A stretch of DNA of 64,000 nt from an uncultured Chloroflexia bacterium (GCA_963823925.1 CAWGNI010000010.1:279424-343423), one strand, 5' to 3'. Positions 43,294-63,876 are shown, counted from the stretch's first letter. Numbers and translations: made by a program. Notes: a model not told the origin generated them from the sequence alone.

Positions 43294-43365
43294 GGTTTCC
43301 GGGCGCCGTAAGATGACACCGGGACGCCGCCGGTTGCCGGTGTGCCTCCAGCCGAGGAGATCGCG

Positions 43366-44913
43366 ATGACAGCCCAGGACCTGGAGCAGCCTGCCGCGCG
43401 GCGAGGACGGGCGGCCCGTCAGTCGGAACGTCTCGCCCGGTCGATGGAGACGCTGCCATACCTGACCCGAAAGCTGGCGCCGGTCGAGGTCATCTCGGCC
43501 GAGGGCCTCGAGCTGATCGAATACAACGCCGAAACGCTGCTCGAAGAGGTCGGGATCGAGATCGTCAACTTCCCGGAGGGGGTCGAGATCTTCCGAGGCG
43601 CCGGAGCCGACGTGACCGGTACCCGGGTCCGGTTCCCGCGCGGGATGTGCCGGTCGCTCGTCACTGCGACCGCCCCGGCCGTGTTCACCCAGCGGGCCCG
43701 CAATCCTGGTCGGAGCGTCCGGATCGGGGATCCGCACATGGTCCTGGTGCCGACCTACGGCTCACCGTTCATCCACAACCTCGACGAAGGCCGCCGCTAT
43801 GCGACCATCGAGGACTTCCGGAACTTCGTGAAGCTGACCTACACGAGCCGGACGCTCCATCACGGCGGCGGGACGCTGTGCGAGCCGGTCGACCTGCCGG
43901 TCAACAAGCGTCATCTCGATATGGTCTACAGCCACATCCGCTACTCGGACCGAGCGTTCATGGGTTCGGTGACCCACCCGAGTCGCGCCCAGGATTCGGT
44001 CGATATGGCTCGGATCGTGTTCGGCCAGGAGATCATGGAGCACGACCACGTGATCATGGGACTGGCCAACGCCAACTCCCCGATGTCGTGGGACTTCAAC
44101 ATGCTCGGGTCGGCGAAGGTCTACGCCGAGAACAACCAGATCATGCTCATCACCCCGTTCATCCTCGGCGGGGCGATGGCCCCCGTGACCGTGGCCGCCC
44201 AGGCGACCCAGACCCTCGCGGAGGCGCTTGCCGGGATGGCTTTCTGCCAGATCGTCCGGCCGGGCGCGCCCGTGATCTTCGGATCGTTCGCCTCATCGAT
44301 GTCGATGCAGACCGGCGCACCCACGTTCGGCACGCCCGAGCCACAGCTCGTCCTCTTCGTGCTGGCCGCCCTGGCTCGCCGATTGGGCGTTCCGTTCCGA
44401 AGCGGTGGCAGTTTCACCGCCTCGAAGGTGCCCGATTATCAGGCGGCATACGAAAGCGCCATCAGCTTCCTCACCACGATCCAGGCCGGCGTGAACTTCA
44501 ACCTTCATACCGCCGGCTGGCTGGAGGGCGGCCTCGCCATCGGGTACGAGAAGTTCGTCCTCGATGAGGACCAGGCCTCGATGACGAGCGCGTACATCGC
44601 GGGTGTCGACGTGACCGACAACGGCTACGCTCTGGAAGCCATGCTCGCCGGCGGGCCGGGCCAGCACTTCCTGGGTTCGCCCCACACGCTGGCCAACTTC
44701 GAGCACGCGTTCTGGCGATCCGAACTGTCGAACAACGACAGCTTCGAGCAGTGGGAGCTTGACGGCGGACTCGACGCCGCGCAGCGGGCCAACCGGCGAT
44801 GGAAGAAGCGCCTGGCCGAGTACGAGGCGCCGCCGATCGATCCCGCTCTCGACGAGGCGCTCATCGAGTGGATCGACCGACGCAAGGCGAGCTTCCCGGA
44901 CTCTGACGTCTGA
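43366..44913 (+). CDS. Trimethylamine-methyltransferase (MttB) superfamily protein, pyrrolysine-free, copy 1
   Basis: PVEVISAEGLELIE, RVRFPRG, LCEPVDLP, TPFILGGAMAPVT, TGAPTFGTPE, DYQAAYES and HTAGWLEGGL; no in-frame TAG. GAGGAG SD. Confidence 0.92.
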   Translation: MTAQDLEQPAARRGRAARQSERLARSMETLPYLTRKLAPVEVISAEGLELIEYNAETLLEEVGIEIVNFPEGVEIFRGAGADVTGTRVRFPRGMCRSLVTATAPAVFTQRARNPGRSVRIGDPHMVLVPTYGSPFIHNLDEGRRYATIEDFRNFVKLTYTSRTLHHGGGTLCEPVDLPVNKRHLDMVYSHIRYSDRAFMGSVTHPSRAQDSVDMARIVFGQEIMEHDHVIMGLANANSPMSWDFNMLGSAKVYAENNQIMLITPFILGGAMAPVTVAAQATQTLAEALAGMAFCQIVRPGAPVIFGSFASSMSMQTGAPTFGTPEPQLVLFVLAALARRLGVPFRSGGSFTASKVPDYQAAYESAISFLTTIQAGVNFNLHTAGWLEGGLAIGYEKFVLDEDQASMTSAYIAGVDVTDNGYALEAMLAGGPGQHFLGSPHTLANFEHAFWRSELSNNDSFEQWELDGGLDAAQRANRRWKKRLAEYEAPPIDPALDEALIEWIDRRKASFPDSDV

Positions 44914-44920
44914 GCACGCG

Positions 44921-46973
44921 GTGACCGTCGCAGATCCGCTCCTGCAGCCGTTCCAGCTGCGACACCTCACGCTCCGGAACCGGATCATGAGCACGAGCCA
45001 CGAGCCGGCCTACGCGGAGGACGGGAAGCCCAAGCTGCGGTACCAGCTCTATCACGAGGAGAAGGCCAAGGGCGGGATCGCCCTGTCGATGTTCGGCGGG
45101 TCGACCAACGTCGCCCCGGACTCGCCGGCGGTCTTCGGGCAGCTCTACGCGGGCGATGACGAGATCATCCCGTGGTTCCGCCAGCTCGCCGACCGGATGC
45201 ATGTCCATGGGGCCGCCACGATGATCCAGCTCACCCACATGGGCCGCCGGACCGTCTGGGATGACGGCGACTGGCTGCCGACGATCTCCGCCTCATCGAT
45301 CCGGGAGCCCGCGCATCGCAGCTTCCCGAAGGAGATGGAACCGGCCGACATCCGGCGGGTCGTCACCGCGTTCGCGGAGGCCGCCCGGCGCTGCAAGGAG
45401 GGTGGCCTCGACGGGCTGGAAGTCATCGCCTACGGACACCTGATCGACCAGTTCTGGTCACCCCTGGTCAACCATCGCGGCGACGCCTATGGAGGATCGC
45501 TGGCGAACCGGATGCGCTTCTCGATCGAGGTCCTGGAGGCCATTCGCAGGACCGTCGGGGACGAGTTCATCGTCGGGATCCGGATGACCGGTGGGGAGGA
45601 TGTCGACGGTGGATTGAGCGAAGCGGACGGTCTGGCCATCGCCACGACGCTGGCACGGACGGGCACGATCGACTTCATCAACATCATCAAGGGCTCGATC
45701 GCGACGGACGAGGCCATCTCACACGTGATCCCGGGAATGGGCACGCCGCTCGGGCCTGCGCTCGAGTTCGCCGGACGATTTCGTGAACGGGTCGACCTCC
45801 CGATCTTCCATGCGGCGCGGGTCGCCGACGTCGCGACTGCCCGGCATGCCATCAGTGAGGGCCTGCTGGACATGGTCGGGATGACCCGGGCCCACATGGC
45901 CGACCCGCACATCGTCCGCAAGCTGGAGGCGGGCGAGGCCGATCGGATCCGGCCATGCGTCGGCGCGTCGTACTGCATCAATCGGCTCTACCTCGGCCTG
46001 GACGCGTTGTGCATCCACAATCCGGCAACCGGTCGCGAGGCGACGATCGCCCACGTCACGCCGCCGGCGACGGGCCCGGTGAGGCGGGTGGTCGTCGTCG
46101 GGGCGGGTCCGGCCGGCCTCGAAGCCGCCCGGGTCGCTGCCGAGCGCGGCCACCGGGTGACCCTGCTCGAGGCGTCCGATCGAGCCGGTGGGCAGATCGT
46201 GCTCGCGGCCCGGGCAACGCCACGACGCGGGGACCTGAGTGGGATCGTCGACTGGCTCGTGTCCGAGTGTCGCCACCTCGGTGTGGACCTGCGCCTGGGA
46301 ACCTTCGCCGATCTCGAACTCGATCGCGTCGTTCGAGCCCGACGTCGTCATCATCGCCACGGGCGGCCGTCCACGGATGCCCGCGCTCTCCGAGGGTGAG
46401 GAACTCGTCGTCAGCACCTGGGACATCATCGGCGGTGAAGTCACACCATCCGCGGGTGAGGTCCTCGTGTTCGACGACCACGGCACGGAGGACGCCCTGT
46501 CATGCGTGGAGCGGATGGCGGCCGCCGGGTCATCGGTCGAGATCGTGACGCCGGACCGCCACGTCGGGCACGAAGTGACGGGGACGGCGTATCCGAGCTA
46601 CCTCGCCGCCTTCTACGCCGCGGGCGTCCGGATGACACCGGATCGTCGCCTCCGATCGGTCCGGCGAACCGATGACCGGCGACTTCGACTCGAACTGACG
46701 AGCGACTACGTCGACACCGTCGAGGAACGCGTCGTCGATCAGGTCGTGGTCGAACATGGCACGATCCCCAACGACGAGATCTACAAGGACCTGATCCCAG
46801 GCGCATCCAACGGTGGCGAACTGGATCTCGATCCGTACCTGGCGGGTCGGCCGCAGATGCGGGTCGTCAACGAGGACGGACGCTATCAGCTGTTCAGGAT
46901 CGGCGACGCCGTCGCCAGCCGGAACATCCACGCCGCGATGTACGAGGCCCGCCGGCTGGCCATGGCCCTGTAA
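44921..46973 (+). CDS. OYE-family oxidoreductase 2, StcD/DgcA-like N-methyl-amino-acid demethylase (frameshift near 46316)
   Basis: DPLLQPFQLRHLTLRNRIMSTSHEPAYAEDG, QLTHMGRRT-WDDGDWLP, CVGASYC and FRIGDAVASRNIHAA resemble (recalled) the N-methylproline demethylase StcD and dimethylglycine demethylase DgcA. Confidence 0.82.
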
Positions 46974-49240
46974 ACGGGTCTCCGGCGCGGTTCAGGCCTG
47001 GGCTGGGGATTCGGCGGCCGGTCCTCTCGCTCGATGAGATTGACAAGGTCGGCCGTGTCTCGCTTGCTCGTCTCTGGTTCGTCGGCGGGGTCGACGGGAT
47101 CGGCGAGGGTGGAGTCATCGATCCTCGTGATGGACCCACCCGCTCCGGCTCCACCGAACTCGGCATCGCCGGTCGTCCCGGCCGCGGAGCCGGCCTCGCC
47201 GCCCGGTCGCGCTTGCAGGCGTCGAAGCTCGTCGAGTGGGATGTGGCAGCTCATCATGTGCCCCGGCTCGACCTCGACGAGCGGCGGTTCGGTGACCTCG
47301 CACAGACCGCTGATCGCCCGGTGGCAGCGGGTACTGAAGACACACCCGGACGGCGGGTTGGCCGGACTGGGGATCTCGCCCTCGAGCAGGATCCGGGTCC
47401 GCTGCTCACCGTCGACGTTCGGGACAGCCGACAGGAGCGCCTCGGTGTACGGGTGGTTCGGACCCCGGAAGACGGTCTCGGAATCGCCGACCTCCATGAT
47501 CCGGCCCAGGTACATGACGGCGATCCGGTCGGCCAGGTAGCGGACGACCCCGAGATCGTGCGAGATCAGCAGGTAGCTCGTCTTGCTCTGGATCTGCAGT
47601 TCCGAGAGCAGGTTGAGGATGGCGGCCTGGACCGACACGTCGAGGGCGCTCGTCGGCTCGTCCGCCACGACGATCCGAGGATCCCCGGCGAATGCCCGGG
47701 CGATGGCGACTCGTTGCTTGAGCCCGCCGGAGAGCTGTCGAGGCTTGAGGTCGAGGTGGCGTTGGGTCAGGCGCAGGTCGGCGGCCAGCTTGTCGACCCG
47801 CTGGCTGACGGCCTTGCCCTTCAACCCGGTCAGCTTGGTCACCGACCGCTCCAGGATGTGCCGAGAGGTCCAACCGCGATTGAGGGCCGAGTCCGGGTTC
47901 TGGAAGACCATCTGGATGGAGCGCTTGTCGTCGGTCGGCCGGTCGCCCGAGCGTGGCGCCAGCGGATGCGCATCGAGCTCCACGGTCCCGCCCGCATCCG
48001 GGCTCTCGATCCCGAGGATCGTCCGGGCCATGGTGGACTTGCCCGAGCCGGACTCGCCGACGAGGCCGAGCGTCTCCCCGTCGTACAGGGTCAGGTTGAC
48101 GCCGACGAGCGCCGGGACGTCGGTCCCGCTCTGGTGGAAGGTCTTCGAGACGTTGTCCAGGGAGAGGGCCAGCTCGCCGTGGACGGTGTCGGCGCCGGTG
48201 ACCGCGGGTGGCTCGACCAGCTCATCCAGCCGATCGCGGTGGTGGCACAGCGTCCAGCGGCCCGGGGCGACCTCGACGACGGGCGGCTCCACCGTCCGAC
48301 ACAGCTCGTCGGCGAGCGGGCAGCGGTCGACGAAGACGCAGGTCGGCAAGTCCGTGCCGATCTGGGGCAGGTTGCCGGGGATCGTCGCCAGCTGGCGTTG
48401 CGACTTGCGGATCCCGCGGCGAGGGAGCGATCGCAGCAGGCCGAGCGTGTAGGGATGCTGCGGCGACTCGAAGACCGAGGCCGAGTCACCTTCCTCGACG
48501 ATCCGGCCCGCGTACATCACGCCGACGCGATCGCACAGCGTTCGGATGACGCCAAGGTTGTGGGCGATGAGCAGGACGGCGGCGTTCGTCTCCGCCTGGA
48601 GTTTCCGGACGAGATCGAGGACGCTCGCCTCGACCGTCGCGTCGAGCCCCGTGGTCGGCTCGTCCAGGACCAGCAGTTTCGGGTCCGAGGCGAGGGCGAT
48701 CGCGATCACGATCCGCTGCTGCATCCCACCCGAAAGTTGGTGCGGATACCGCTCGAACACGCCCTCCGGGTCCGCGATCTGCACCCGTTCGAGGGCCTTC
48801 ATCGCGCTGACCCGCGCGTCCTTGCCGTTCTGGCCGAGGATCGTGAACGCCTCCACGACCTGTGGGCCGACCTTGGTCGTCGGGTTGAGGGCGGCGCCCG
48901 GGTCCTGGTAGACCATCGAGGCGTGGTGGATCCGGAAGCGGCGGACCTCGTCGTCGCTCATCTTGGTGATGTCGTCGCCCGACACGAGGATCCGGCCGCC
49001 CGTGATCAGTGCGTTGCGGGGCAGGTATCGGACCGCGGCATAGGCGGTGGTCGATTTCCCACATCCGGACTCGCCGACGAGGCCATACGACTCGCCTGGG
49101 CGCACCTCGAACGAGACCCCACGCAGGACCGGGCGGGGAATGCCGCGGACGACATACGACAGTGACAGGTCGTCGACCTTGAGCGCCGCCGGCGCGTCGT
49201 TCGAGGCCGGCATCGGCGCGCTGACTGCCTCGGCCGTCAT
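46886..49240 (-). CDS. Fused double-domain peptide/nickel ABC ATPase (OppD-OppF type)
   Basis: Two NBDs (GESGCGKST and GESGSGKST; LSGGMQQR and LSGGLKQR) with oligopeptide-ABC Cys tails. The C-terminal end may be earlier than the ORF end because it overlaps the convergent gene. Confidence 0.93.
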   Translation of the reverse strand: MTAEAVSAPMPASNDAPAALKVDDLSLSYVVRGIPRPVLRGVSFEVRPGESYGLVGESGCGKSTTAYAAVRYLPRNALITGGRILVSGDDITKMSDDEVRRFRIHHASMVYQDPGAALNPTTKVGPQVVEAFTILGQNGKDARVSAMKALERVQIADPEGVFERYPHQLSGGMQQRIVIAIALASDPKLLVLDEPTTGLDATVEASVLDLVRKLQAETNAAVLLIAHNLGVIRTLCDRVGVMYAGRIVEEGDSASVFESPQHPYTLGLLRSLPRRGIRKSQRQLATIPGNLPQIGTDLPTCVFVDRCPLADELCRTVEPPVVEVAPGRWTLCHHRDRLDELVEPPAVTGADTVHGELALSLDNVSKTFHQSGTDVPALVGVNLTLYDGETLGLVGESGSGKSTMARTILGIESPDAGGTVELDAHPLAPRSGDRPTDDKRSIQMVFQNPDSALNRGWTSRHILERSVTKLTGLKGKAVSQRVDKLAADLRLTQRHLDLKPRQLSGGLKQRVAIARAFAGDPRIVVADEPTSALDVSVQAAILNLLSELQIQSKTSYLLISHDLGVVRYLADRIAVMYLGRIMEVGDSETVFRGPNHPYTEALLSAVPNVDGEQRTRILLEGEIPSPANPPSGCVFSTRCHRAISGLCEVTEPPLVEVEPGHMMSCHIPLDELRRLQARPGGEAGSAAGTTGDAEFGGAGAGGSITRIDDSTLADPVDPADEPETSKRDTADLVNLIEREDRPPNPQPRPEPRRRPVYRAMASRRASYIAAWMFRLATASPILNS

Positions 49241-50127
49241 TCGCTCATCACCGATTGGAGTGAGTCCGCGATCAGGTTGACCGCGATGACCATGCTGGCG
49301 ATGGCGAGCGCCGGGAACAGGGTCGGCCACCAGACCCCGGAGATCATGTTGTTGTATTCCTGGCTCACCGTGAGCCCCCAGTCCGGGGACGGTGGCTGGA
49401 TGCCCACGCCGAGGAACGACAGCGTGGCGACCGTGAAGATCGCGTACCCGAACCGGACGGTGAGTTCGACGACCGTCGGGCCCAGCACATTCGGGAAGAT
49501 CTCGCGCGACAGGATGAACGGGCCGGACTCCCCGCGCAGCTTGGCCGCGGTCACGTAATCGAGCTGTCGTTCGGACAGGACGGCGGAGCGGACCGTGCGA
49601 GCCACGATCGGGGTGAACAGGATGCCGACGACGCAGATGACGACGATCGGCGACGTCCCGAGGACGACCAGGGTCAGCAGCGCGACGAGGATGACGGGGA
49701 GCGCGAGGAACGCTTCGACCAGCCGGCTGATGAGGTCGTCCACGACGCCGTGGTAGTAGCCCATGATCAGCCCGAGCAGCGTTCCGGCGACGACGCCGAG
49801 GAGGGCGGCCAGCGGGGCGATGATCAGGACGTCTCGGGATCCGACCATGACCCGTGAGAGGACGTCGCGGCCGAGCCGGTCCGTGCCCATCAGGTGCTCC
49901 AGGCTCGGCGGCAACTGGCCGGTATCGAAGTAGTTGAACGGATCGTACGGGGTGATCCGCTCGCCGAGGAGGGCGGTCACGATCCAGCCGACCATGATCA
50001 CGACCCCGATGATGAACGCGGGCCGGTGGAGCAGGACGCGGATCGTCTCGCGGCGTGCCTTGGCTCGCTCCGAGGTCGGTGTGGGTGTCTGGGAGAGGAT
50101 CTCCTCCGGCGTGACCGTGACGTCCAT
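49237..50127 (-). CDS. Peptide/nickel ABC permease (OppC/DppC type)
   Basis: HLMGTDRLGRDVLSR, DYVTAAKLRGES and LSFLGVGIQPPSPDWG. Confidence 0.93.
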   Translation of the reverse strand: MDVTVTPEEILSQTPTPTSERAKARRETIRVLLHRPAFIIGVVIMVGWIVTALLGERITPYDPFNYFDTGQLPPSLEHLMGTDRLGRDVLSRVMVGSRDVLIIAPLAALLGVVAGTLLGLIMGYYHGVVDDLISRLVEAFLALPVILVALLTLVVLGTSPIVVICVVGILFTPIVARTVRSAVLSERQLDYVTAAKLRGESGPFILSREIFPNVLGPTVVELTVRFGYAIFTVATLSFLGVGIQPPSPDWGLTVSQEYNNMISGVWWPTLFPALAIASMVIAVNLIADSLQSVMSE

Positions 50128-51080
50128 CAGCGTTCCGCGTCCAGACGGATCCGTGGGTTCATCCAGGCGATGATCAGGTCAGCGCCGAGCGTCGCCAGCA
50201 TGTAGACGATGCCGATGACGATCGCTCCGGCGGTGAGCATCGGGATGTCCTTTCGCTGGGCGGCGAAGAGCATCGTCTGACCCATCCCGTTGTAGTTGAA
50301 GATCTTCTCGACGGCGATGATCCCGCCGAACAGGTAGCCGATCTGGACGGCGATGACGGCGACCGTCGGGATCAACGCGTTGCGCAGGACGTGGTGGCGC
50401 ATCATCTGGCTCGTCGTGAGCCCCTTCATCGTCGCCGTGCGAGCGTAATCGGACTGCAGCACGTCGATCGTGCCGGCCCGGGTCATCCGGGCGATATAGC
50501 CGAAGTAGACGATGGCCATCGCGGTCGCCGGCATCAGCAGGTATCGGATCTGGGTCAGGACGTCTGCGTCCGGCGGCGGCGTCGCGAGGACCGGGAGCAG
50601 GTGGAAGTGCACCCCGACGACGACGACCAGGATCGTCCCCGTGACGAACTCCGGGATCGATGACGAGGTCACGCCGAGCAACACGATCGCCCGGTCCGCG
50701 GGTCTGTCCCTTCGTCTCGCGGCAAACAGACCCGCGATGATGGCGAGCGGGATGGTGATGAGCAGTGCCAGTCCGGCGAGCTTCGCCGAACGGCCGATCG
50801 CATCCACCAGCTGGGGCAGGACGGGCTGGCTCGTGATGTACGAGTCGCCGAAGTCGAGGGTGACGATCCCGACCATCGCATCGACGTACTGGACCAGGAT
50901 CGGACGGTTGGTGCCGAGGCGCTCGTTGAGCGCATCGACACTTTCCTGTGGCGCGAACGGGCCGAGGATCGTCCGCCCGATGTCGTTGGGCAGGACATTC
51001 GCGATGATGAACACGATCGTGGCCAGCAGCCACAACGTGACGAGCGACAGGAGCAGTCGGCGCCCGACGAACCGGCCCAT
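50127..51080 (-). CDS. Peptide/nickel ABC permease (OppB/DppB type)
   Basis: LDFGDSY, SSIPEFV, RMTRAGTIDVLQSDYARTA and HVLRNALIP. Confidence 0.93.
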   Translation of the reverse strand: MGRFVGRRLLLSLVTLWLLATIVFIIANVLPNDIGRTILGPFAPQESVDALNERLGTNRPILVQYVDAMVGIVTLDFGDSYITSQPVLPQLVDAIGRSAKLAGLALLITIPLAIIAGLFAARRRDRPADRAIVLLGVTSSSIPEFVTGTILVVVVGVHFHLLPVLATPPPDADVLTQIRYLLMPATAMAIVYFGYIARMTRAGTIDVLQSDYARTATMKGLTTSQMMRHHVLRNALIPTVAVIAVQIGYLFGGIIAVEKIFNYNGMGQTMLFAAQRKDIPMLTAGAIVIGIVYMLATLGADLIIAWMNPRIRLDAER

Positions 51081-51112
51081 CGCCCTAGGTCACCCGATAC
51101 GGAGTCACGCCG

Positions 51113-51148
51113 GCACGGGGACCGTGGCACTCGCCACCGTCCCCGTGC
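51113..51148. terminator. Long intergenic hairpin between the SBP and permease genes (mRNA-stabilising or attenuating)
   Basis: GCACGGGGAC (51113-51122) pairs with GTCCCCGTGC (51139-51148), with an inner GTGGC/GCCAC stem. Confidence 0.65.
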
Positions 51149-51154
51149 GGGGCC

Positions 51155-52858
51155 TCAAGAGACCTTCGAAGCCGTATTGAAGAACGCCTGGCCCAGACCA
51201 CTGGAGTAGAACCCGGTGAACTGGTTCGAGGAACCACTGAGGAAGTTGTAGAAGTACGGCACACCGATCGGCACCTCGTCGTTGAGGATGGTTTCGATCT
51301 TGCCGCAGGCGGCCTTCTGGGCATCGACGCCGACCGACGTCTGGAATTCCTTGAAGGCGGCGTCGTATGCCGCCGATGAGTACTGGGACGAGTTCCAGAC
51401 GCCCTTCGTCGACAACGCCGAGTTCAGGTAGACGTCCGGTGTCGCCCGATGTCCATAGTCGACGATGCCGAGCTCGGCAGCGCCGGAACACGGTGGGTCG
51501 GCCGGCTCGGGCGGGCACCACTGTGCACCGTAGAACGTGTCGAGGCTCTCGACGGCGACCGTCAGGTTGATCCCGGCCGGCTCCGCCTGGCTCTTGAGGA
51601 GCGTCGCGAGGTCAGGGATCTCCAGGATCTGGCCGCAGTGCAACGTCGCCGACAGCCCCGTCGCGTTGGCGTCTGCCAGGAGTTGCTTTGCCTGATCGAT
51701 GTTCTGCGCCCGCTGGGGCACGGACGAATCGAAGTACGGGTAGACCGGAGCGATGACATGGTCATTGCCCAGATCCGCCTTGCCCTGGAACAGCTGCTGG
51801 ATGAGGGCCGGCCGGTCGAACGTGAGGGCCAGCGCCTGGCGGACCCGCTTGTCAACGAACTGTCCCGTGTCCGTGCGCATCCAGATCTGGCGATGGAGGG
51901 CCGCCTGAAGGGCGACGCTCGTGAAGTTCGGGTCGTCCAGCAGGGACTTTCCGGACAGGACATCGAACTGGATGATGGCGTCCACCTGGCCGCCCTGATA
52001 GGCGGTGACCATCGGCCCGGTGGCGTCGAAATAGATCCACTCGACCGTGTCGAGCGGTGTCTTGGCACCCCACCAGGCATCGTTCCGGGCGAACGTGGCG
52101 CCGCTGGCCTGGTTGTAGTTGACGAGCTTCCAGGCGCCGGTGCCGTTCGGGCTCCCGTCGAGGGTCGTGCCGGTCGTGTAGGCCGCCGGTGTGATGAGCG
52201 TCTGCGCATTGAAGACCGAAACGAGGTACGGGAAGTTGCCGTTCGGGTTCGCCAGGTTGAAGGTGACCGTGTTCGCGTCGGTCGCCACCGCGCCACCGCT
52301 CTCGAGCACGCCCTTCAGGCCGGAGTTGCCGGACTCGACCAGGCGCTCCATCGTGGCCACGACATCGGCCGAGGTGAAGTCCGTGCCGTCCTGCCACTTG
52401 ACGCCCTGGCGGAGATCGAAGACCCACACGCTGCCGGTGTCGTTCGGCGTCCACTTGGTGGCCAGGCCCGGAGCGAGCAGGACCAGGGGCTGACTCGGGT
52501 CCGAAGTGCACAGGAACTCGAACGACATCGCCGTGGTGCCGTATGAGCCGAGGTCCTGCATCAGGATCGGATCCAGGGGGCCCGACGGCCGCTGCGCCGC
52601 GACCCGGATCGTGCCGCCGGCGACGGGCGGAGCCGCGCTGGCGCCGGCACTGGCCCCGGTCGTCGGCGCCGCTCCGGTCGCGCTCGAGCTGCCGCAGGCG
52701 GCGATGACCGCGCTGATCGAGGCCATCGACAGGCCGACGATCGCGCCACGTTGCATGAATTCGCGGCGGCTCAATCGGCCGCGGGCGAACGACTCGACGA
52801 CGTCCAGCTGCAGCGGGGTGGTGTCCTGACGAACCTTGTCAAGCTTGGAATAGTCCAT
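51155..52858 (-). CDS. Family 5 ABC substrate-binding lipoprotein with twin-arginine signal
   Basis: LSRREFMQR Tat motif, lipobox IAAC, PGLATKW, FDLRQGVKWQDG, NGTGAWKL and RVRQALAL. Confidence 0.92.
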   Translation of the reverse strand: MDYSKLDKVRQDTTPLQLDVVESFARGRLSRREFMQRGAIVGLSMASISAVIAACGSSSATGAAPTTGASAGASAAPPVAGGTIRVAAQRPSGPLDPILMQDLGSYGTTAMSFEFLCTSDPSQPLVLLAPGLATKWTPNDTGSVWVFDLRQGVKWQDGTDFTSADVVATMERLVESGNSGLKGVLESGGAVATDANTVTFNLANPNGNFPYLVSVFNAQTLITPAAYTTGTTLDGSPNGTGAWKLVNYNQASGATFARNDAWWGAKTPLDTVEWIYFDATGPMVTAYQGGQVDAIIQFDVLSGKSLLDDPNFTSVALQAALHRQIWMRTDTGQFVDKRVRQALALTFDRPALIQQLFQGKADLGNDHVIAPVYPYFDSSVPQRAQNIDQAKQLLADANATGLSATLHCGQILEIPDLATLLKSQAEPAGINLTVAVESLDTFYGAQWCPPEPADPPCSGAAELGIVDYGHRATPDVYLNSALSTKGVWNSSQYSSAAYDAAFKEFQTSVGVDAQKAACGKIETILNDEVPIGVPYFYNFLSGSSNQFTGFYSSGLGQAFFNTASKVS

Positions 52859-53035
52859 GGGTCTGGAACCTCCGGGGCGACAAGTGGGCGGCGGGACTCA
52901 CGACCATGATCGACCGCGAGCGACAACGCGATACCGGCTCTGTGTCTCCCCAGCCGGTCCGTGAGTGTGTCGGAACCGTACCGGCCGACCTCTCGACTGT
53001 CAACGCTCGGTGACCCCAGGCGCGATACTTCGCGG

Positions 53036-54145
53036 ATGCGAATCACGGCCATCCGGATCGACCGGGCCACCCTGCCGCTGTCGCCGCCGTTCCCGGCGGC
53101 ATGGGATCCGATCCCTCGTGAGTCCTTCGCGGCCACGATCGTCCGAGTCGAGACCGATGCGGGGATCGTCGGGATCGGGTCGGGCGACACGATGGATGGC
53201 TTCGGGGCGTTCAGCCACCTGTTCCTCGGCGAGGACCCGTTGGCCATCGCCCGTCATGTCCGGGTGCTCGAGACGATCGACTTCCATGGCAGTCGCTACT
53301 GGCCGCTCGAGGTCGCCCTGTGGGACATCATCGGGCAGGTCGCCGGGTTGCCGGTGGCGACCTTGTTCGGCGGCACGCTCGACGGGATCCCGGCCTACGC
53401 ATCGTGCGGGATGTTGCTCCCGGCGGCGGCCCGCGCCGAAGCAGCGCTGCGCTTCCGGGAGGAAGGCTTCCGAGCCCTCAAGATCCGGGTCGACCCGGAA
53501 CATCTCGAGGATGGTCTCGCGGCGGTCACCGCGACGCGGGCGGCAGTCGGCGACTCGATGGCGATCATGGTCGATCTCAACCAGGGCTGGCGGATGGCCG
53601 GTGACGTGCGCCGCTCGCTGGACCCCGTCGCGGCGCGCGAGGTCGCGGCCCGGCTCGCCGACGATGGCGTGCTCTGGGTGGAGGAACCGCTGGCGGGGAC
53701 CGACCTGCGTGGCCTGGCTGCCCTGCGCGCATCGGGTCCCGGCATCCGGGTGGCGGGCGGCGAGATGACCCGGACGTTCACCGAGCTCCTGGCTGCCCTC
53801 GACGCCGACGCGTTCGACGTCCACCAGCCCGACGTCGTCCTGGCCGCCGGGATGTCGCGCGGCCGGACCATCGCCGAGCTTGCCATGGCGCGCAACCGCT
53901 GGTACTCACCGCACACCTGGACGAACGGGATCGGGCTGCTGGCCAACCTGCACGTCGCTGCCGGCGTCGGTGGTGGCCCGTTCATCGAGTACCCGTACGA
54001 CCCGCCCGGCTGGACCGCGGAGCGACGCGACTTCATGCTCGCCGAACCGATCCGCCCGGGCCCCGATGGGATCCTGCGCGTCCCGACCGCGCCAGGGCTC
54101 GGGATCGTCCTCGACGAGGCGGCGATCACCAGGTATGCGGGATGA
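53036..54145 (+). CDS. Mandelate racemase/muconate-lactonising (enolase superfamily) enzyme
   Basis: VRVETDAGIVGIG, EVALWDIIG, ALKIRV, MVDLNQG (D), WVEEP (E), AGGE (E), HQPD and YSPHTW. Confidence 0.92.
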   Translation: MRITAIRIDRATLPLSPPFPAAWDPIPRESFAATIVRVETDAGIVGIGSGDTMDGFGAFSHLFLGEDPLAIARHVRVLETIDFHGSRYWPLEVALWDIIGQVAGLPVATLFGGTLDGIPAYASCGMLLPAAARAEAALRFREEGFRALKIRVDPEHLEDGLAAVTATRAAVGDSMAIMVDLNQGWRMAGDVRRSLDPVAAREVAARLADDGVLWVEEPLAGTDLRGLAALRASGPGIRVAGGEMTRTFTELLAALDADAFDVHQPDVVLAAGMSRGRTIAELAMARNRWYSPHTWTNGIGLLANLHVAAGVGGGPFIEYPYDPPGWTAERRDFMLAEPIRPGPDGILRVPTAPGLGIVLDEAAITRYAG

Positions 54146-55656
54146 CCTCGGCACCGACGAACCCGACCGTGGACGACTGGATCGCCCGGGCGGCCGAGGT
54201 GGCGCCGCGGACCGAGCTGTTCATCGATGGGCGGTTCGTCCCGGCCGCGTCGGGCCGGACGTTCGACGACGTCGCCGGGCGGGACGGGCAACGGATCGCC
54301 ACGGTGGCCGAGGCGTCGGTCGAGGACGTCGACCTGGCCGTTCAGGCGGCCCGGCGTTCGTTCGACGACCGGCGATGGAGTGACCAGCCGCCCGCGGCGC
54401 GAAAGCGGGTCCTCCTGCGCCTGGCGGAACTCGTTCGCGAACACACGGACGAGCTCGCGCTGCTCGAGTCCCTCGACGTCGGCAAACCCATCCGCGACAC
54501 CCTGGCCGTGGACGTCCCGGGTGCCGCCACGACCTTCCAGTGGTACGCAGAGACGATCGACAAGACCTACGGCGAGGTCGGACCGACCGGTCCCGATGCG
54601 CTCTCGCTGGTGACCCGCGAGCCGATCGGTGTGGTCGCCGCGATCGTGCCCTGGAACTACCCGCTGATCATCACCGCCTGGAAGCTCGGGGCGGCGCTCG
54701 CGACGGGCAACTCGGTGGTGCTCAAACCCGCCAGCCAATCGCCGCTGACCGCGCTCCGTCTGGCGGAGCTCGCCGCCGCCGCCGGCCTGCCCGACGGCGT
54801 GCTCAACGTCGTCGCCGGTCCTGGGGCGGTCGTCGGCGACGCCCTGGCTCGACATCCAGGGGTCGACAAGATCGCGTTCACCGGGTCGACGACGGTCGGC
54901 AAGTCGCTCCTTCGGGCAGTCGGCGAGTCCGACGTCAAGGCCATCTCGCTGGAACTCGGCGGCAAGAGTCCGCAGGTGGTCCTCGCCGACGTCGGCGACC
55001 TCGACACGGCGGCTTCGGCGATCGGCTGGGGGATCTTCTACAACAGCGGCCAGACCTGCAACGCCGGCTCCCGGCTGGTCGTCCACCGCTCGGTGCGCCA
55101 GGAACTCGTCGACCGGATCGCGGCCCTCGGTCGGACGCTGGCGCCCGGGGACCCGCTCGATCCCCGGACCCGGCTCGGCTCGATCGTGGACGGCCGCCAG
55201 CTCGAGAAGATCCTCGGATACGTGGCCATCGGCCGGACGGAGGGAGCCGCGGTCCTTGCCGGCGGCGAGCGCGTGCGAGAGGAAAGCGGCGGCTACTTCG
55301 TCGGTCCGACCATCCTCGACGGCGTCAGCAATTCGATGCGGGTGGCCCGCGAGGAGATCTTCGGACCCGTCCTGACCGTGACCGAGTTCGAGGACGAGGA
55401 CGAAGCGATCGCGATCGCCAACGACACGCCGTACGGTCTCGCCGCCGGCGTCTGGACCCGCGACGTCAACCGTGCCCATCGCCTGTCGCGTCGGATCCGG
55501 GCCGGGGTCGTGTGGGTCAACACCTTCGACACTGCCGACATCACCGTCCCGTTCGGTGGCTTCAAGCAATCGGGCTTCGGGCGCGACAAGGGACTCCACG
55601 CCCTCGAGGGGTACAGCCAGCTCAAGACGACCTGGTTCGACCTGTCCGGAGGCTGA
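54142..55656 (+). CDS. Aldehyde dehydrogenase (PuuC-like)
   Basis: IVPWNYP, LKPASQS, FTGSTTVG, LELGGKSP, YNSGQTCNAGSR, EEIFGPV and GGFKQSG. Confidence 0.93.
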   Translation: MTSAPTNPTVDDWIARAAEVAPRTELFIDGRFVPAASGRTFDDVAGRDGQRIATVAEASVEDVDLAVQAARRSFDDRRWSDQPPAARKRVLLRLAELVREHTDELALLESLDVGKPIRDTLAVDVPGAATTFQWYAETIDKTYGEVGPTGPDALSLVTREPIGVVAAIVPWNYPLIITAWKLGAALATGNSVVLKPASQSPLTALRLAELAAAAGLPDGVLNVVAGPGAVVGDALARHPGVDKIAFTGSTTVGKSLLRAVGESDVKAISLELGGKSPQVVLADVGDLDTAASAIGWGIFYNSGQTCNAGSRLVVHRSVRQELVDRIAALGRTLAPGDPLDPRTRLGSIVDGRQLEKILGYVAIGRTEGAAVLAGGERVREESGGYFVGPTILDGVSNSMRVAREEIFGPVLTVTEFEDEDEAIAIANDTPYGLAAGVWTRDVNRAHRLSRRIRAGVVWVNTFDTADITVPFGGFKQSGFGRDKGLHALEGYSQLKTTWFDLSGG

Positions 55657-55757
55657 GCCGGCGGCTCCGAGCCGCGGCCCCCGGTTTGCCGTTAGCATGC
55701 TAGGCGTCGTCGACGCCCCGGATCGGGCCGTCGAGGCAACGTCGGACAGGAGTGCCT

Positions 55758-57323
55758 GTGACGGACATGGACACGGACGCGGGCCAGGGTCTTCGACGTC
55801 GCCGTTCAGGTGGACGCGAGGGTCACGCTCGGAGCGCCCTGCCCCAGCAGCGACCGTGGGCCCAGCCACGGATGCGCTATCCCCCGACCGAGCTGATCTC
55901 GGCCGATGAACTCGAGTCGATCCACCTTGGCTCGCTGCGGGTGCTGTCCGAGATCGGGATGGACTTCCTCGACCCAGAGGCCCGCGAGATCCTGCGCGGC
56001 GCCGGTGCCACCGTCGAATCGGACTCCCAGCGCGTCCGGTTCCCGCCCGCGATGGTCGACGAGATCATCAGGACCGCGCCGTCGACGTTCACGCTGCATG
56101 CCCGCAATCCGGCCCATGACGTTCGCCTCGGCGGCGACTGGATCGCGTTCGGGACCGTCGGCAGTCCGCCGAACGTGGCCGACCTGGACCGGGGACGTCG
56201 GATCGGCAACCGGGCGGACTACCAGAACCTGCTGCGGCTCTCCCAGATGCTCAACGCCGTCCACTTCATGGCGGGATACCCGGTCGAGCCGGTCGACCTG
56301 CACCACAGCGTCCGGCACCTCCATGCGACCTACGACGCCCTGACCCTGATGGACAAGGTGGTCCACGCCTACAGCCTCGGCCGCCAGCGCAATATCGACT
56401 GTCTCGAGATGGTCCGGATCGCCCGCGGCATCGACATGGACACGATCGACCGCGAGCCATCCGTGATGACCGTCGTCAACTCGAGTTCGCCGCTGCGCCT
56501 GGACACTCCGATGCTCCAGGGGATGATCGAGTTCGCGTCCCACAACCAGGTGGTCTGCATCACGCCGTTCACGCTCGCCGGCGCGATGGCCCCGGTGACC
56601 CTGGCCGGCGCACTCGCCGAGCAGAACGCCGAAGCCCTGGCCGGGATCGTCATGACCCAGGCCGTCCGACCCGGCGCGCCGGTGATCTACGGCGGCTTCA
56701 CGTCGAATGTCGACATGCAATCGGGCGCGCCAGCGTTCGGGACGCCGGAGTACATGCGGACGGCGATGATCGGCGGCCAGCTCGCCCGTCGGTACGGTGT
56801 CCCGTACCGCTCCTCGAACGTGTGTGCCGCGAATGCGCTCGATGCCCAGGCGGCGTACGAATCGGTCTTCTCCCTGTGGGGCGCGATCATGGGCGGGGTC
56901 AACCTGCTGATGCACGGCGCCGGCTGGATGGAAGGCGGACTCCACGCCAGCTACGAGAAGATGATCCTGGACGCGGAACTCCTCGAGATGGTCGAGGCCT
57001 TCCTCGAGCCGGTGATCGTCGACGCTGACACCCTCGGCTTCTCGGCGATGGAGGAGGTCGGCCCGGGGGGCCACTTCTTCGGGGCCGCGCACACCCAGGA
57101 GCGGTATCGGACGGCCTTCCACAAGCCGATGCTGAGCGACTGGCGGAACTACGAGACGTGGCAGGAGGCCGGCTCGCCCGAGCTGCCGTCCAAGGCCAAT
57201 CGGATCTGGAAGGAGCTGCTCGCGGCGTACGAACCGCCACCGATCGATCCGGCCGTCGCCGAGGAACTCGAGGCGTTCGTAGCTCGACGTGTCGCCGAGG
57301 GCGGCGTCCCGACGGACTACTGA
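55758..57323 (+). CDS. MttB-superfamily methyltransferase, pyrrolysine-free, copy 2
   Basis: LISADELESIH, RVRFP, PVEPVDL, NSSSPLRLD, TPFTLAGAMAPVT, SGAPAFGTPE, DAQAAYES and HGAGWMEGGL; no in-frame TAG. AGGAG SD before GTG 55758. Confidence 0.92.
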   Translation: MTDMDTDAGQGLRRRRSGGREGHARSALPQQRPWAQPRMRYPPTELISADELESIHLGSLRVLSEIGMDFLDPEAREILRGAGATVESDSQRVRFPPAMVDEIIRTAPSTFTLHARNPAHDVRLGGDWIAFGTVGSPPNVADLDRGRRIGNRADYQNLLRLSQMLNAVHFMAGYPVEPVDLHHSVRHLHATYDALTLMDKVVHAYSLGRQRNIDCLEMVRIARGIDMDTIDREPSVMTVVNSSSPLRLDTPMLQGMIEFASHNQVVCITPFTLAGAMAPVTLAGALAEQNAEALAGIVMTQAVRPGAPVIYGGFTSNVDMQSGAPAFGTPEYMRTAMIGGQLARRYGVPYRSSNVCAANALDAQAAYESVFSLWGAIMGGVNLLMHGAGWMEGGLHASYEKMILDAELLEMVEAFLEPVIVDADTLGFSAMEEVGPGGHFFGAAHTQERYRTAFHKPMLSDWRNYETWQEAGSPELPSKANRIWKELLAAYEPPPIDPAVAEELEAFVARRVAEGGVPTDY

Positions 57324-57362: not shown

Positions 57363-59816
57363 ATGAAGTCATCCGCCCAGGTCGTCGTCATCGGTGGTGG
57401 CGTCGTCGGTGCGAGCGTCCTGTATCACCTGACCAAGGCGGGCTGGACCGACGTCGTCCTGCTCGAGCGTCGTGAACTGACGGCCGGGTCGACCTGGCAT
57501 GCCGCCGGCGGGATGCACACGCTCAACGGCGATCCCAACGTGGCCAAGCTTCAGCAATACACGATCAAGTTGTACGAGGAGATCGAGCGGGTCTCCGGGC
57601 AGGATTGCTCGATCCACCTGCCCGGCGGGCTGATGCTCGCGGACACGGAGGTCCGGATGGACTTCCTGCGGATGGCCGTGGCGCGCGGCCGATATCTGGG
57701 CATGGAACTGGAGCTGATCAGCGCCAGGGAGGCGCAGGATCTCTTCCCGCTGATGGACGCCCAGTATTTCGTCGGCGCGCTGTGGGACCCGATCGAAGGA
57801 CATCTGGACCCGACCGGGGTGACGCGGGCCTATGTCAAGTGCGCCCAGTTGGCCGGCGCGGAGGTCTACCAGCAGACCCCGGTCGTCGGCTTGACCCAGC
57901 GCGCCGACGACACGTGGGACGTCCGGGTGGAGAGCGGCGACGTGATCCACGCGGAGCATGTCGTCAACGCCGGGGGCCTGTGGGCTCGCGAAGTCGGTCG
58001 GATGGTCGGTCTGGAACTGCCGATCCTGGCGATGGAGCACATGTACCTGCTCACCGACGACATGCCGGAGGTCAAGGCGTTCAATGCGAGCACCGGCAAG
58101 GAGGTGCCCGGCGTCCTCGACTTCGGCGGCGAGGTCTACCTCCGTCAAGAGGGCCAGGGGATGCTCCTCGGCACCTACGAGCAGGCGTCGGTCCCGTGGT
58201 CGCCGAAGGCGACGCCGTGGGACTTCGGCTCGCAGCTGCTGAAGCCCGACATCGACCGGATCACCCCGGAGCTCCAGGTCGCCTTCCAGCACTACCCGGC
58301 GATGGGTACGATCGGCATCCGTCGGGTCGTCAACGGACCGTTCACCTTCTCGCCGGACGGGAACCCGGTCGTCGGCCCGATCCCCGGCCTGCCTGGCTTC
58401 TGGGTCGCCTGCGGGGTGATGGCCGGCCTGTCCCAGGGTGGTGGGGTCGGGCTCGCCCTGGCCGCCTGGATGACCGCCGGCCGGGACAGCGACTCGGGTA
58501 TGGACGTGTGGGCGATGGATGTCGCTCGCTACGGCGACTACGCGACGATGGGCTACACGAACGCCAAGGTCCAGGAGAACTACCGTCGGCGCTTCCAGAT
58601 CACCTTCCCGAACGAAGAGCTGCCGGCCGGCAGGCCGCTCCACACGACCCCGATCTACGACCGATTGAGCGCTGCCAACGCCGTCTGGGGTGCGTCGTAT
58701 GGCCTCGAGCACGCCCTGTGGTTCCAGGACGCGGGCCTGCCGCCGGTGGAGGACGTCACGTTCCGGCGCTCGAACGCCTGGGACCCCGTCGCCGCGGAAG
58801 TCAAGGCCGTGCGCGAACGGGTCGGTCTCACGGAGATCTCCAACTTCGCCAAGTACCGAGTCCGTGGTCCGGCCGCAGAGGCATGGCTGTCGTCGCTCCT
58901 GACCAATCGGATGCCCAGGGTCGGCCGGATCGCGCTGACGGCGATGCTCAACGATCAGGGCCGGATCGTCGGGGAATTCACGGTGGCGCGGGCCGCTGCC
59001 GATGACTTCTTCCTGTTCGGGTCACAGGCCGCCGAGACGCATCACGGCCGCTGGTTCCGAAGTCACCTTCCGACCGACGGGTCGGTCACCTTCGAGGTCC
59101 TCGGGCTCGGCCTGGTCGGGCTGTCGGTGGCCGGACCGAAGGCTCGCGAGGTGCTCCAGGCGGTCACCGACGAGGACGTGTCCGGCGAGGCACTCCGGTT
59201 CCTCGACTTCCGCGAGCTGGATCTCGGGATGATCCCCGCGCGCGTCGGTCGGCTGTCGTACAGCGGCGACCTTGGCTACGAGTTGTGGGTGGCGCCCGAG
59301 TACCAGCGGGCCCTGTACGACCGGCTGATGACGGCGGGCGCCGCCCACGGCATCCGTCTGTTCGGGTTCCGGGCGCTGATGTCGCTCCGGCTCGAGAAGA
59401 GCTTCGGCACCTGGTTCCGTGAGTACCGGCCGATCTACACGATCCCTGAAGCCGGGATCGGCCACTACGTGAAGCTCGACCACGACTTCATCGGGCGCGA
59501 GGCCTACGAAACCCAGCTGGCCGCTGGACCGACACGCCGCCTGGTGATGCTCGTCGTCGAGCCCGACCCCGACGATCCGGCGGACGTCATCGGCGACGAG
59601 CCGATCTGGCACCGCGACCAGGTCGTCGGCTGGGTGACGTCGGGCGGCTACGGCCACTCCGCCGGGGTATCGCTGGCGCTTGGCTACGTTCCCACGGAAC
59701 TCGCCTCGCTCGAAGGCGATGGCGAGTTCGAGATCGAGATCATCGGCCGGCGGCGCCCCGCCCGCATCCAGCCACGACCCGTGGTCGATCCCGAGGGTCT
59801 GCGGATGCGCCAGTGA
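57363..59816 (+). CDS. Dimethylglycine-dehydrogenase-like FAD oxidoreductase with GcvT folate domain
   Basis: VVIGGGVVG, LTAGSTWHAAG (covalent-FAD His motif), NGPFTFSPDG, GLSQGGGVG and GcvT domains (LNDQGRI, SLRLEKSF, GDEPIW). Confidence 0.92.
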   Translation: MKSSAQVVVIGGGVVGASVLYHLTKAGWTDVVLLERRELTAGSTWHAAGGMHTLNGDPNVAKLQQYTIKLYEEIERVSGQDCSIHLPGGLMLADTEVRMDFLRMAVARGRYLGMELELISAREAQDLFPLMDAQYFVGALWDPIEGHLDPTGVTRAYVKCAQLAGAEVYQQTPVVGLTQRADDTWDVRVESGDVIHAEHVVNAGGLWAREVGRMVGLELPILAMEHMYLLTDDMPEVKAFNASTGKEVPGVLDFGGEVYLRQEGQGMLLGTYEQASVPWSPKATPWDFGSQLLKPDIDRITPELQVAFQHYPAMGTIGIRRVVNGPFTFSPDGNPVVGPIPGLPGFWVACGVMAGLSQGGGVGLALAAWMTAGRDSDSGMDVWAMDVARYGDYATMGYTNAKVQENYRRRFQITFPNEELPAGRPLHTTPIYDRLSAANAVWGASYGLEHALWFQDAGLPPVEDVTFRRSNAWDPVAAEVKAVRERVGLTEISNFAKYRVRGPAAEAWLSSLLTNRMPRVGRIALTAMLNDQGRIVGEFTVARAAADDFFLFGSQAAETHHGRWFRSHLPTDGSVTFEVLGLGLVGLSVAGPKAREVLQAVTDEDVSGEALRFLDFRELDLGMIPARVGRLSYSGDLGYELWVAPEYQRALYDRLMTAGAAHGIRLFGFRALMSLRLEKSFGTWFREYRPIYTIPEAGIGHYVKLDHDFIGREAYETQLAAGPTRRLVMLVVEPDPDDPADVIGDEPIWHRDQVVGWVTSGGYGHSAGVSLALGYVPTELASLEGDGEFEIEIIGRRRPARIQPRPVVDPEGLRMRQ

Positions 59817-62056: not shown

Positions 62057-62426
62057 ACGGCTCGTCGGTCTCCGCGTCGTGGCGGATCCCGCGGCCATCG
62101 ACGCGGCCCGCTGGCGTGGTGACGAGGTCACCGTCCTGCGGTTCGCCCCGGACGATGCGTTCGCCCTGGGGGCGTCGGGCGTCGAGGTCGACGATCCACT
62201 GGCCATCGTCGAGCACGAGGTCGGGTTCGCAGGCGCCCGGCTCTCCTCGACGGAGTTCGCCGAGATCATGGCCCACGTCGAGTGGCCGCTCCCCGCGGGC
62301 CGTCCGGCACTCGCGCAGGGCGCGATCGCCGGGGTCCCGGCGAAACTCTGGCTGGCGAACGACGGCGAGGCGATGCTCCTGGCGAACCTGGCCTACGCCG
62401 AGGAACTCGAGGGGCGGCTGCGATGA
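62043..62426 (+). CDS. Short sarcosine-oxidase-gamma-like protein
   Basis: LRFAPDDAF and AQGAIAGVPAKLW...LL...YAEEL resemble SoxG; overlaps both neighbours. Confidence 0.55.
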   Translation: MRALERLVGLRVVADPAAIDAARWRGDEVTVLRFAPDDAFALGASGVEVDDPLAIVEHEVGFAGARLSSTEFAEIMAHVEWPLPAGRPALAQGAIAGVPAKLWLANDGEAMLLANLAYAEELEGRLR

Positions 62427-63631: not shown

Positions 63632-63876
63632 TGCTCTGGCTCCCCTGTCCGCACTGCGGCCGTCGGCCGATCGACGAGTTCACCTTCGGTGGCGAGCGCC
63701 GAGCCGTGCCGGACTGGATCACGGATCCCGACGAGCGGGACTTCGATGAGGTCTGGAACTTCGAGAACCCGGACACCGAGACCACCGAGCGCTGGTTCCA
63801 CGCCTTCGGTTGCCGGCGCTGGCTGACCGTCCGGCGCGATACCACGAGCGACACCGTCCTGGAGGTCACGACGTGA
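63631..63876 (+). CDS. soxD: Sarcosine oxidase delta subunit
   Basis: CPHCGRRPIDEF and WFHAFGCRRW (Cys3His zinc site), RDT. Confidence 0.92.
   Translation: MLWLPCPHCGRRPIDEFTFGGERRAVPDWITDPDERDFDEVWNFENPDTETTERWFHAFGCRRWLTVRRDTTSDTVLEVTT

Follow-up and report, generated by a model that had tools for sequence, protein, structure and literature searches.

The 64,000-nt stretch of DNA considered here (the window; GCA_963823925.1 CAWGNI010000010.1:279424-343423, or C10:279424-343423 in the contig numbering used below) comes from an uncultured Chloroflexia bacterium and encodes two members of the MttB methyltransferase superfamily, copy 1 (MttB1) and copy 2 (MttB2). We consider it probable, at roughly 80%, that these proteins are two of six spokes on one shared cobalamin-dependent hub and that they act by a corrinoid-dependent mechanism. 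A sequence-only reading of the window had noted that no corrinoid partner for either protein lies within 64 kb, and had proposed that the methyl acceptor is encoded in trans or that both proteins rely on another acceptor or mechanism. Genome-wide searches confirmed that no corrinoid protein, RACo/RamA activase or corrinoid-type pterin methyltransferase is encoded inside the window. For the genome the statement does not hold, as the mtgC gene starts 55.6 kb upstream of MttB1 on the same contig. The partner thus seems to be missing because of where the window ends.

The search of the genome for B12-binding MtgC/MttC-like and RamA-like genes, carried out on an assembly of 2.94 Mb (11 contigs, 84% complete, ~69% G+C), recovered one complete module at C10:267195-274258. 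This hub operon occupies the interval from 12.2 to 5.2 kb before the first base of the window, and its genes, which run in one direction and are nearly gapless, are arranged in the order MtgC-DUF1638-MtgD-RACo-MttB3-MetF2 (Table 1). The end of the hub is 48.5 kb upstream of MttB1 and 60.9 kb from MttB2. The hub MtgC contains the motifs DIHDIG (DxHxxG) and SxL...GG, and it scores best against MtgC models (NF047996, 202 bits, which is under the exception-level cut-off of 370), while the hub RACo carries an N-terminal ferredoxin-like cysteine cluster. B12-binding domains were matched three times in the whole genome, each time outside the window: once in the hub (C10:267507), once in a mutase subunit beside MeaB, and once in a CarH-like protein beside methylmalonyl-CoA mutase. 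No second MtgC, MtgD, DUF1638, RACo or MetF2 was detected in the assembly by tblastn, and the RACo family search returned a single hit. The genome contains six MttB-family genes: MttB3 in the hub, MttB1, MttB2, and three on contigs 4, 7, and 2. The existence of this sole hub operon outside the window supports an acceptor encoded in trans. A putative cognate corrinoid/methyl-THF (tetrahydrofolate) module has thereby been found.

MttB1 and MttB2 are pyrrolysine-free members of the MttB superfamily (PF06253). Both open reading frames (ORFs) are uninterrupted, as had been noted from the sequence, with 523 codons each and no internal stop; the start codon previously assigned to MttB1 was the ATG at 43366. 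Both proteins match the MTTB Pfam profile (500 positions, gathering cut-off 25 bits) over nearly its entire length. An alignment by eye had placed phenylalanine in copy 1 and valine or cysteine in copy 2 at the pyrrolysine position, and this assignment was borne out and sharpened. When all paralogues were aligned by MAFFT together with 7XCL, Desulfitobacterium hafniense MtgB (DhMtgB), and the Sinorhizobium meliloti protein 4YYC, the pyrrolysine column is occupied by Phe358 in MttB1 (TTC, 44413-44415) and by leucine in both DhMtgB and 4YYC. With HMMER, the pyrrolysine of Methanosarcina barkeri MttB (X in 7XCL) was aligned with Val357 of MttB2 (GTG, 56820-56822, followed by TGT), and alignment to 7XCL, 9YCE, and 4YYC showed that one residue is deleted immediately ahead of Val357. 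The pyrrolysine-type model TIGR02369 gave 225 and 332 bits for MttB1 and MttB2, respectively, far under its cut-off of 525. The two copies are 40% identical to each other. MttB1 shares 58-60% identity with 4YYC over 500 residues and ~40% with DhMtgB, while MttB2 shares 54% with MttB4 (contig 4) and ~40% with DhMtgB (2QNE/9YCE). From the 58% identity of MttB1 to 4YYC, and the ~40% identity of both copies to 2QNE/9YCE, each protein is predicted to fold as a TIM barrel with a C-terminal extension.

The two copies were placed by maximum likelihood relative to DhMtgB, 4YYC, M. barkeri MttB, and metagenomic or plasmid homologues. MttB1 falls in a clade made up exclusively of Chloroflexota sequences (support of 100 in the Shimodaira-Hasegawa-like approximate likelihood ratio test, SH-aLRT) that sits on a long stem and is nested within the large MttB3-type clade, which unites genes of Chloroflexota, Actinomycetota, Acidobacteriota, and Pseudomonadota with 4YYC. 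The MttB2 clade (SH-aLRT 99) includes MttB4, genes of alphaproteobacterial plasmids, and gammaproteobacterial genes (45-47% identity). DhMtgB branches outside both clades. The alphaproteobacterial plasmid members of the MttB2 clade are orphans located beside genes of the sarcosine oxidase or dimethylglycine dehydrogenase (DMGDH) type. The gammaproteobacterial members directly adjoin mtgC in four loci, two of them co-directional and two divergent. A search with MttB1 retrieved 80 loci, of which ~70 contain MttB3-type genes, and most of these lie with MtgC-DUF1638-MtgD-RACo within 10 kb; these four genes are almost always upstream, and MetF2 downstream, of the MttB3-type gene. Plasmid p1 of Paracoccus methylovorus provides an annotated example of this arrangement. 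The operon MtgC-DUF1638-MtgD-RACo-MttB-MetF2 itself appears to be widespread in metagenome-assembled genomes (MAGs) from soil (loci L030-L093), namely those of Actinomycetota (Gaiellales, Acidimicrobiia), Acidobacteriota, Chloroflexota, and Steroidobacteraceae, well beyond the marine groups known to have the aerobic system.

Linkage and co-occurrence point in the same direction. Orthologues of MttB1, with 82-91% identity, were found only in MAGs labelled 'Candidatus Limnocylindrales', 'Chloroflexia' or 'Chloroflexota', many of them from soil, and since these hold its closest orthologues, the genome was placed in Limnocylindria. RACo is present in every genome with an MttB1 orthologue (16 of 16). 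Across 151 evenly sampled genomes of the Chloroflexota, it was found in 19 of 20 MttB-positive and 32 of 131 MttB-negative genomes (Fisher p ~1e-9), and within the class, in 4/4 and 0/12, respectively. The block of ~80 kb running from the hub through MttB1 to MttB2 is collinear in one genome of the same genus. In three relatives, RACo appears to lie ~60-70 kb from the MttB1 orthologue, provided that the contigs numbered C2, C12, and C5 hold those loci.

Studies of DhMtgB defined a glycine-betaine motif consisting of Y97, R312, H348, and F356, in which R312 and H348 are essential and bind the betaine carboxylate (PMC13080624). The equivalent residues in the MAFFT alignment are Y, R, H, and G in MttB1 (Y97, R312, and H348 kept, F356 replaced by glycine) and G, R, H, and G in MttB2 (R312 and H348 kept, Y97 and F356 replaced by glycine). 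The complete motif is thus found in neither copy, and with part of the aromatic pair missing, sequence alone does not justify classing either of them as a glycine betaine enzyme of the DhMtgB type. A tryptophan occurs four residues ahead of the F356 position in MttB1, MttB2, MttB3, and 4YYC, and may have taken over the cation-pi role. Searches of the MttB paralogues and flavoproteins against NCBIfam provided no substrate information, as the pyrrolysine-type MttB model remained under its cut-off and the flavoprotein matches were to generic FadH/OYE models.

For MttB2, the substrate is most likely glycine betaine or a near analogue. The simplest pathway would lead from glycine betaine through dimethylglycine and sarcosine to glycine, a route that is suggested by the operon shared with DMGDH-like and sarcosine-oxidase-like genes and that we hold tentatively, at somewhat under even odds. 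MttB1 would act on some carboxylate betaine, with a tertiary amine as product, which would be passed to demethylases of the trimethylamine dehydrogenase (TMADH) family of StcD/DgcA type. The resemblance to StcD/DgcA of the two TMADH-family proteins flanking MttB1 is presumed here, their NCBIfam matches being limited to the generic FadH/OYE models. The MttB1 clade is further distinguished by its long stem branch, by phenylalanine at the pyrrolysine position, and by a conserved place between two genes for TMADH-family Fe-S flavoproteins. It might have evolved within Limnocylindria a substrate specificity that is new to the MttB superfamily, though we think this rather unlikely; the three-gene cassette would then demethylate a soil betaine stepwise, with B12 chemistry removing the first methyl group and flavin chemistry those that follow. 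In wider terms, an aerobic soil Chloroflexota bacterium that appears unable to make B12 would operate six different quaternary-amine methyltransferases from one corrinoid hub.

The remaining paralogues show associations of their own. The Arg/His pair is missing from MttB5 and MttB6, whose substrates are therefore probably compounds without a carboxylate. The end of MttB6 overlaps the gene for the alpha subunit of a Rieske ring-hydroxylating oxygenase (L008:8428-11386; G000 C2:40427-43385), placing candidates for a corrinoid-type and an O2-dependent demethylase in one operon. MttB4 lies upstream of genes for a GMC oxidoreductase and a major facilitator superfamily (MFS) transporter.

Several observations weigh against assigning MttB1 and MttB2 to the hub. 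The module lies within 10 kb of the MttB1 orthologue in none of the 16 loci; RACo is missing from one Chloroflexota genome that has MttB (G098); and since other corrinoid systems use RACo as well, its co-occurrence with MttB is unspecific. Of the aromatics by which DhMtgB binds the quaternary nitrogen, MttB2 lacks both and MttB1 one, which implies that substrate binding would differ from that in the one solved betaine complex. Both flavoprotein genes beside MttB1 are frameshifted in this assembly. Neither CbiC (corrin ring) nor CobS was detected in the 84%-complete assembly, and the cofactor would therefore need to be imported. Finally, all the evidence that ties the two copies to the hub is indirect, yet consistent.

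MttB3 could be the only partner of MtgC, with MttB1 and MttB2 being redundant, decaying or non-catalytic, for instance as binding proteins or as vestiges of a pathway that is being lost. The frameshifts in the flavoprotein genes flanking MttB1, and further frame breaks in other genes of the assembly, would fit such decay. The MttB1 and MttB2 ORFs, however, are intact and of full length and retain the carboxylate-binding Arg and His; MttB1 is maintained with 82-91% identity and with synteny in 16 genomes, where its flanking genes are intact; and frame breaks are so common across this assembly that they may be consensus errors. We consider this explanation improbable. Slightly less probable still is a corrinoid-independent reaction, in which MttB1 and MttB2 would pass the methyl group straight to THF or to some other acceptor, such as the adjacent THF-binding GCV_T proteins, by a new mechanism suited to oxic conditions. 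It draws on the 16 loci orthologous to that of MttB1, none of which has a corrinoid gene within 10 kb, on the alphaproteobacterial MttB2 homologues that stand as orphans beside THF-dependent demethylases, on the THF-binding GCV_T domains downstream of MttB2, and on the fact that the DhMtgB aromatic pair is not conserved. Against this, all biochemically characterised members of the superfamily methylate a corrinoid (PMC13080624, PMC8604678); MttB1 is 67% identical to MttB3, which is embedded in a corrinoid operon; RACo accompanies all 16 orthologues; MttB2-clade genes adjoin mtgC in Gammaproteobacteria; and scattered mtgB genes that depend on a common MtgC are documented in the aerobic Ruegeria pomeroyi (PMC12478193). 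The different acceptor or mechanism suggested by the sequence-only reading is unsupported, and also unneeded: MttB and RACo co-occur tightly, and both clades are physically linked to mtgC elsewhere. Least probable is a carrier other than MtgC, either free cobalamin, whose cob(I)alamin form is methylated in vitro by MttB-family enzymes (PMC13080624), or the 241-aa protein at C3:208417-209139, which has both a B12-binding_2 and a B12-binding domain but was rejected as a second corrinoid partner, being CarH-like (63 bits, with ~42 bits to MtgC models against 202 bits for the hub MtgC), devoid of DxHxxG, adjacent to methylmalonyl-CoA mutase, and unaccompanied by a second MtgD or RACo. This contig-3 protein (L005:5415-6140, minus strand) has ExHxxG in place of DxHxxG, and no DNA-binding domain was detected in it.

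With the shared hub as the preferred reading, a pathway can be proposed, all of whose catalytic steps, like the substrates, are predictions modelled on the characterised MttB family. Each MttB paralogue would hold a carboxylate-bearing betaine in its TIM barrel by means of the conserved Arg and His, and would move one N-methyl group to the Co(I) of the common MtgC. Methyl-Co(III)-MtgC would then give up its methyl group to THF through the action of MtgD, and the resulting methyl-THF would be oxidised to methylene-THF by the MetF2-like reductase. Co(II) arising from oxidation would be re-reduced by RACo/RamA, probably together with DUF1638, a reaction that would matter in an aerobe. Flavoproteins whose genes neighbour each spoke would remove further methyl groups from the tertiary-amine products, namely the two TMADH-family proteins for MttB1, and the DMGDH-like protein and the sarcosine-oxidase-like complex for MttB2.

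The supply of cobalamin has a wider taxonomic pattern. Three further genomes, one of the same genus and two of the same family (G135, G090, G099; 94-97% complete), likewise lack CobS, which is present in three more distant relatives; the lineage may rely on imported cobalamin. The suggested auxotrophic lineage carries up to six B12-dependent methyltransferase genes and a B12-dependent mutase. As for the organism's metabolism, two genes for heme-copper oxidase subunit I were found in the genome, from which it is concluded that the organism respires oxygen. PaaA/PaaC and beta-oxidation-type genes are located upstream in the window, and the host with O2-dependent pathways that had been postulated from the sequence agrees with these findings.

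The apparent paradox of partnerless corrinoid methyltransferases in an aerobe is resolved by the position of the window edge, and aerobic B12-dependent demethylation of betaines is extended from marine Proteobacteria to soil Chloroflexota. If the system operates as proposed, these lineages, which are abundant in soil and freshwater, would need cobalamin for betaine turnover and would apparently obtain it from external sources, and 'trimethylamine methyltransferase' annotations would misstate the substrate. The potential for discovery lies solely in the substrates of the six paralogues.

Both breaks in the flavoprotein genes were located by a switch in the G+C content of third codon positions and by alignments. 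In the first gene the frame is broken near 42695-42720 with a net shift of -1 (PDB and DNA alignments); the N-terminal part corresponds to residues 2-450 of 1PS9, and an ORF in the next frame (42706-43290) to residues ~475-668 of homologues. The second is broken near 46325-46340 by +1 (pairwise and DNA alignments). The breaks fall at homologous inter-domain linker positions, though the two paralogues are just 35% identical. In three relatives the orthologues are single ORFs of 663-683 aa (663-667 aa for the first flavoprotein; an intact 683-aa orthologue of the second lies at L014:11600-13651). Programmed frameshifting was rejected, as the shifts have opposite directions (-1, +1), no slippery motif is common to both, and the relatives have single ORFs; mutation or consensus error is preferred. 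GATC/TCGA motifs adjoin both breaks and could hint at methylation-related consensus errors in long reads. Approximately 12 candidate frame junctions, some of which are gene boundaries, were counted in 90 kb here, compared with four in the same-genus genome. Frame breaks lie near 1030 and 18550, and other junctions near 17508, 21368, 25214, 30853, and 32086. Pfam matches are truncated at 130-1410 and at 18451-19581, where an aldehyde dehydrogenase match ends at profile position 318 of 461. Consensus indel errors in the assembly are plausible because the junctions are dense, Pfam matches are truncated, and S-methyl_trans genes are split (see below). No frame break was found in MttB1, MttB2 or the hub genes.

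The other genes around the two copies are listed in Table 1. The ABC importer was not given a substrate by NCBIfam; its family-5 solute-binding protein is syntenic with MttB1 in relatives. The end of the enolase-superfamily (MR_MLE) gene overlaps the start of the aldehyde dehydrogenase gene. The MR_MLE protein scores under every NCBIfam cut-off, and its top PDB matches are of the acid-sugar type (4GGB/4HPN). A role as an HpbD-like hydroxyproline-betaine epimerase, which would have implied a proline-betaine pathway for MttB2, was considered and dropped: the best PDB matches are dehydratases of galactonate and talarate, and none of the 13 matches at E <= 1e-20 bears the name of a hydroxyproline-betaine epimerase. 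The aldehyde dehydrogenase is separated from MttB2 by 96 nt and scored 607 bits against the NCBIfam PuuC model (cut-off 850) and 516 bits against the betaine aldehyde dehydrogenase model (cut-off 669). The flavoprotein gene that follows MttB2 encodes a THF-binding aminomethyltransferase domain.

Table 1. Genes of the hub operon (contig coordinates, C10) and of the window around MttB1 and MttB2 (window coordinates).
Feature	Position	Strand	Domains, scores, and remarks
MtgC corrinoid protein	C10:267195-267893		233 aa; B12-binding_2 and B12-binding
DUF1638 protein	hub operon		88 bits
MtgD, methyl-THF:corrinoid methyltransferase	hub operon		Pterin_bind; NF005719 366 bits (cut-off 259)
RACo/RamA activase	hub operon		688 aa; RACo linker, middle, and C-terminal domains
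MttB3	hub operon		PF06253 768 bits; 67% identity to MttB1
MetF2-like reductase (MTHFR-like)	hub operon, directly after MttB3		weak score, 36 bits
TMADH/2,4-dienoyl-CoA-reductase-family Fe-S flavoprotein	41300-43293	+	upstream of MttB1; Oxidored_FMN and FAD/NAD domains
MttB1 (copy 1)	43342-44913	+	PF06253 695 bits, profile positions 2-500
Second TMADH-family Fe-S flavoprotein	44921-46973	+	downstream of MttB1; GTG start at 44921; Pfam
Opp/Dpp-type ABC importer	46886-52858	-	Pfam ABC_tran (two) with oligo_HPY, BPD_transp_1 (two), SBP_bac_5
 Double ATPase	46886-49330	-	
 Permease	49237-50127	-	
 Permease	50127-51080	-	
 Family-5 solute-binding protein	51155-52858	-	
Enolase-superfamily (MR_MLE) protein	52961-54145	+	Pfam MR_MLE_N/C
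NAD(P)-dependent aldehyde dehydrogenase	54142-55656	+	PF00171 572 bits; PuuC/betaine-aldehyde-dehydrogenase-like
MttB2 (copy 2)	55752-57323	+	PF06253 669 bits, profile positions 4-500
Dimethylglycine/sarcosine-dehydrogenase-like flavoprotein	57363-59816	+	40 nt after MttB2; Pfam DAO, FAO_M, GCV_T, GCV_T_C
Sarcosine-oxidase-like cluster	59813-63876	+	overlaps the DMGDH-like gene
 Short SoxA-like subunit	59813-62056	+	2Fe-2S (Fer2_4), BFD-like (Fer2_BFD), GCV_T
 SoxB-like DAO protein	62282-63631	+	Pfam DAO
 SoxD	63388-63876	+	Pfam SoxD

The closest described counterpart is found in the aerobe R. pomeroyi DSS-3, in which genetics and proteomics revealed an MtgBCD system that acts as a glycine-betaine methyltransferase and split methionine synthase (Mausz et al., PNAS 2025; PMC12478193). 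In that organism, one MtgC and one bidirectional MtgD serve two PF06253 proteins encoded elsewhere, and in the proposed model, RamA and DUF1638 carry out reactivation while MetF2 oxidises methyl-THF (PMC12478193). The earlier statement that characterised pyrrolysine-free systems come from anaerobes is therefore out of date. Mausz et al. also pointed out that Eubacterium runs many MtgB-like paralogues on a single corrinoid core, and did not mention Chloroflexota (PMC12478193); a survey of floodplain MAGs already lists corrinoid methyltransferase genes in Limnocylindria (PMC11264602). The present system resembles that of R. pomeroyi in its aerobic host, in pyrrolysine-free PF06253 proteins as putative methyl-donor components, in a single MtgC (PF02310), in a MetF paralogue that comes after a pterin-binding MtgD, in the presence of RamA and DUF1638, in several mtgB paralogues located away from mtgC, and in the nearby genes for dimethylglycine and sarcosine demethylases. 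This likeness is one of gene content. The systems differ in that the host here is a soil member of the Chloroflexota (Limnocylindria) rather than a marine proteobacterium, in that the hub genes, scattered in R. pomeroyi, form one operon, and in the number of paralogues, six as opposed to two. No MetH-sized B12-binding ORF was detected in the 84%-complete assembly. Two loci for stand-alone homocysteine S-methyltransferases (PF02574; C5:155492-156326 and C2:175878-176742) are both split over frames and, if functional, would by analogy be MtgE candidates of a split methionine synthase that shares MtgC and MtgD.

D. hafniense MtgB (DSY3156; 2QNE, 9YCE; PMC13080624) is ~40% identical to the two copies over the full length, and shares with them the R312 and H348 equivalents and a hydrophobic residue in place of pyrrolysine (leucine there, phenylalanine and valine here). 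The copies depart from it by the replacement of F356 with glycine in both and of Y97 with glycine in MttB2, and, unlike here, the D. hafniense gene belongs to an anaerobic host and has mtgC and mtgA adjacent to it. The S. meliloti 'putative trimethylamine methyltransferase' 4YYC, also from an aerobic host, is 58-60% identical to MttB1, shares its Y/R/H and GWLEGGL pattern, and belongs to the large module-linked clade. In contrast to MttB1, it is an MttB3-type orthologue outside the Limnocylindria-specific branch, with leucine at the pyrrolysine position and no assigned substrate. Eubacterium limosum (MtpB, MtcB, MtyB, MthB), compared by description, likewise has many paralogues and one corrinoid protein (PMC8604678, PMC12155760), with one THF methyltransferase and one RamA-type activase common to the quaternary-amine enzymes; it is a strictly anaerobic acetogen, however, and directs the methyl groups into the Wood-Ljungdahl pathway. 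On the preferred reading, the system described here is a Limnocylindria case of aerobic MtgBCD-type demethylation, with six spokes and with its hub gathered in a single operon.

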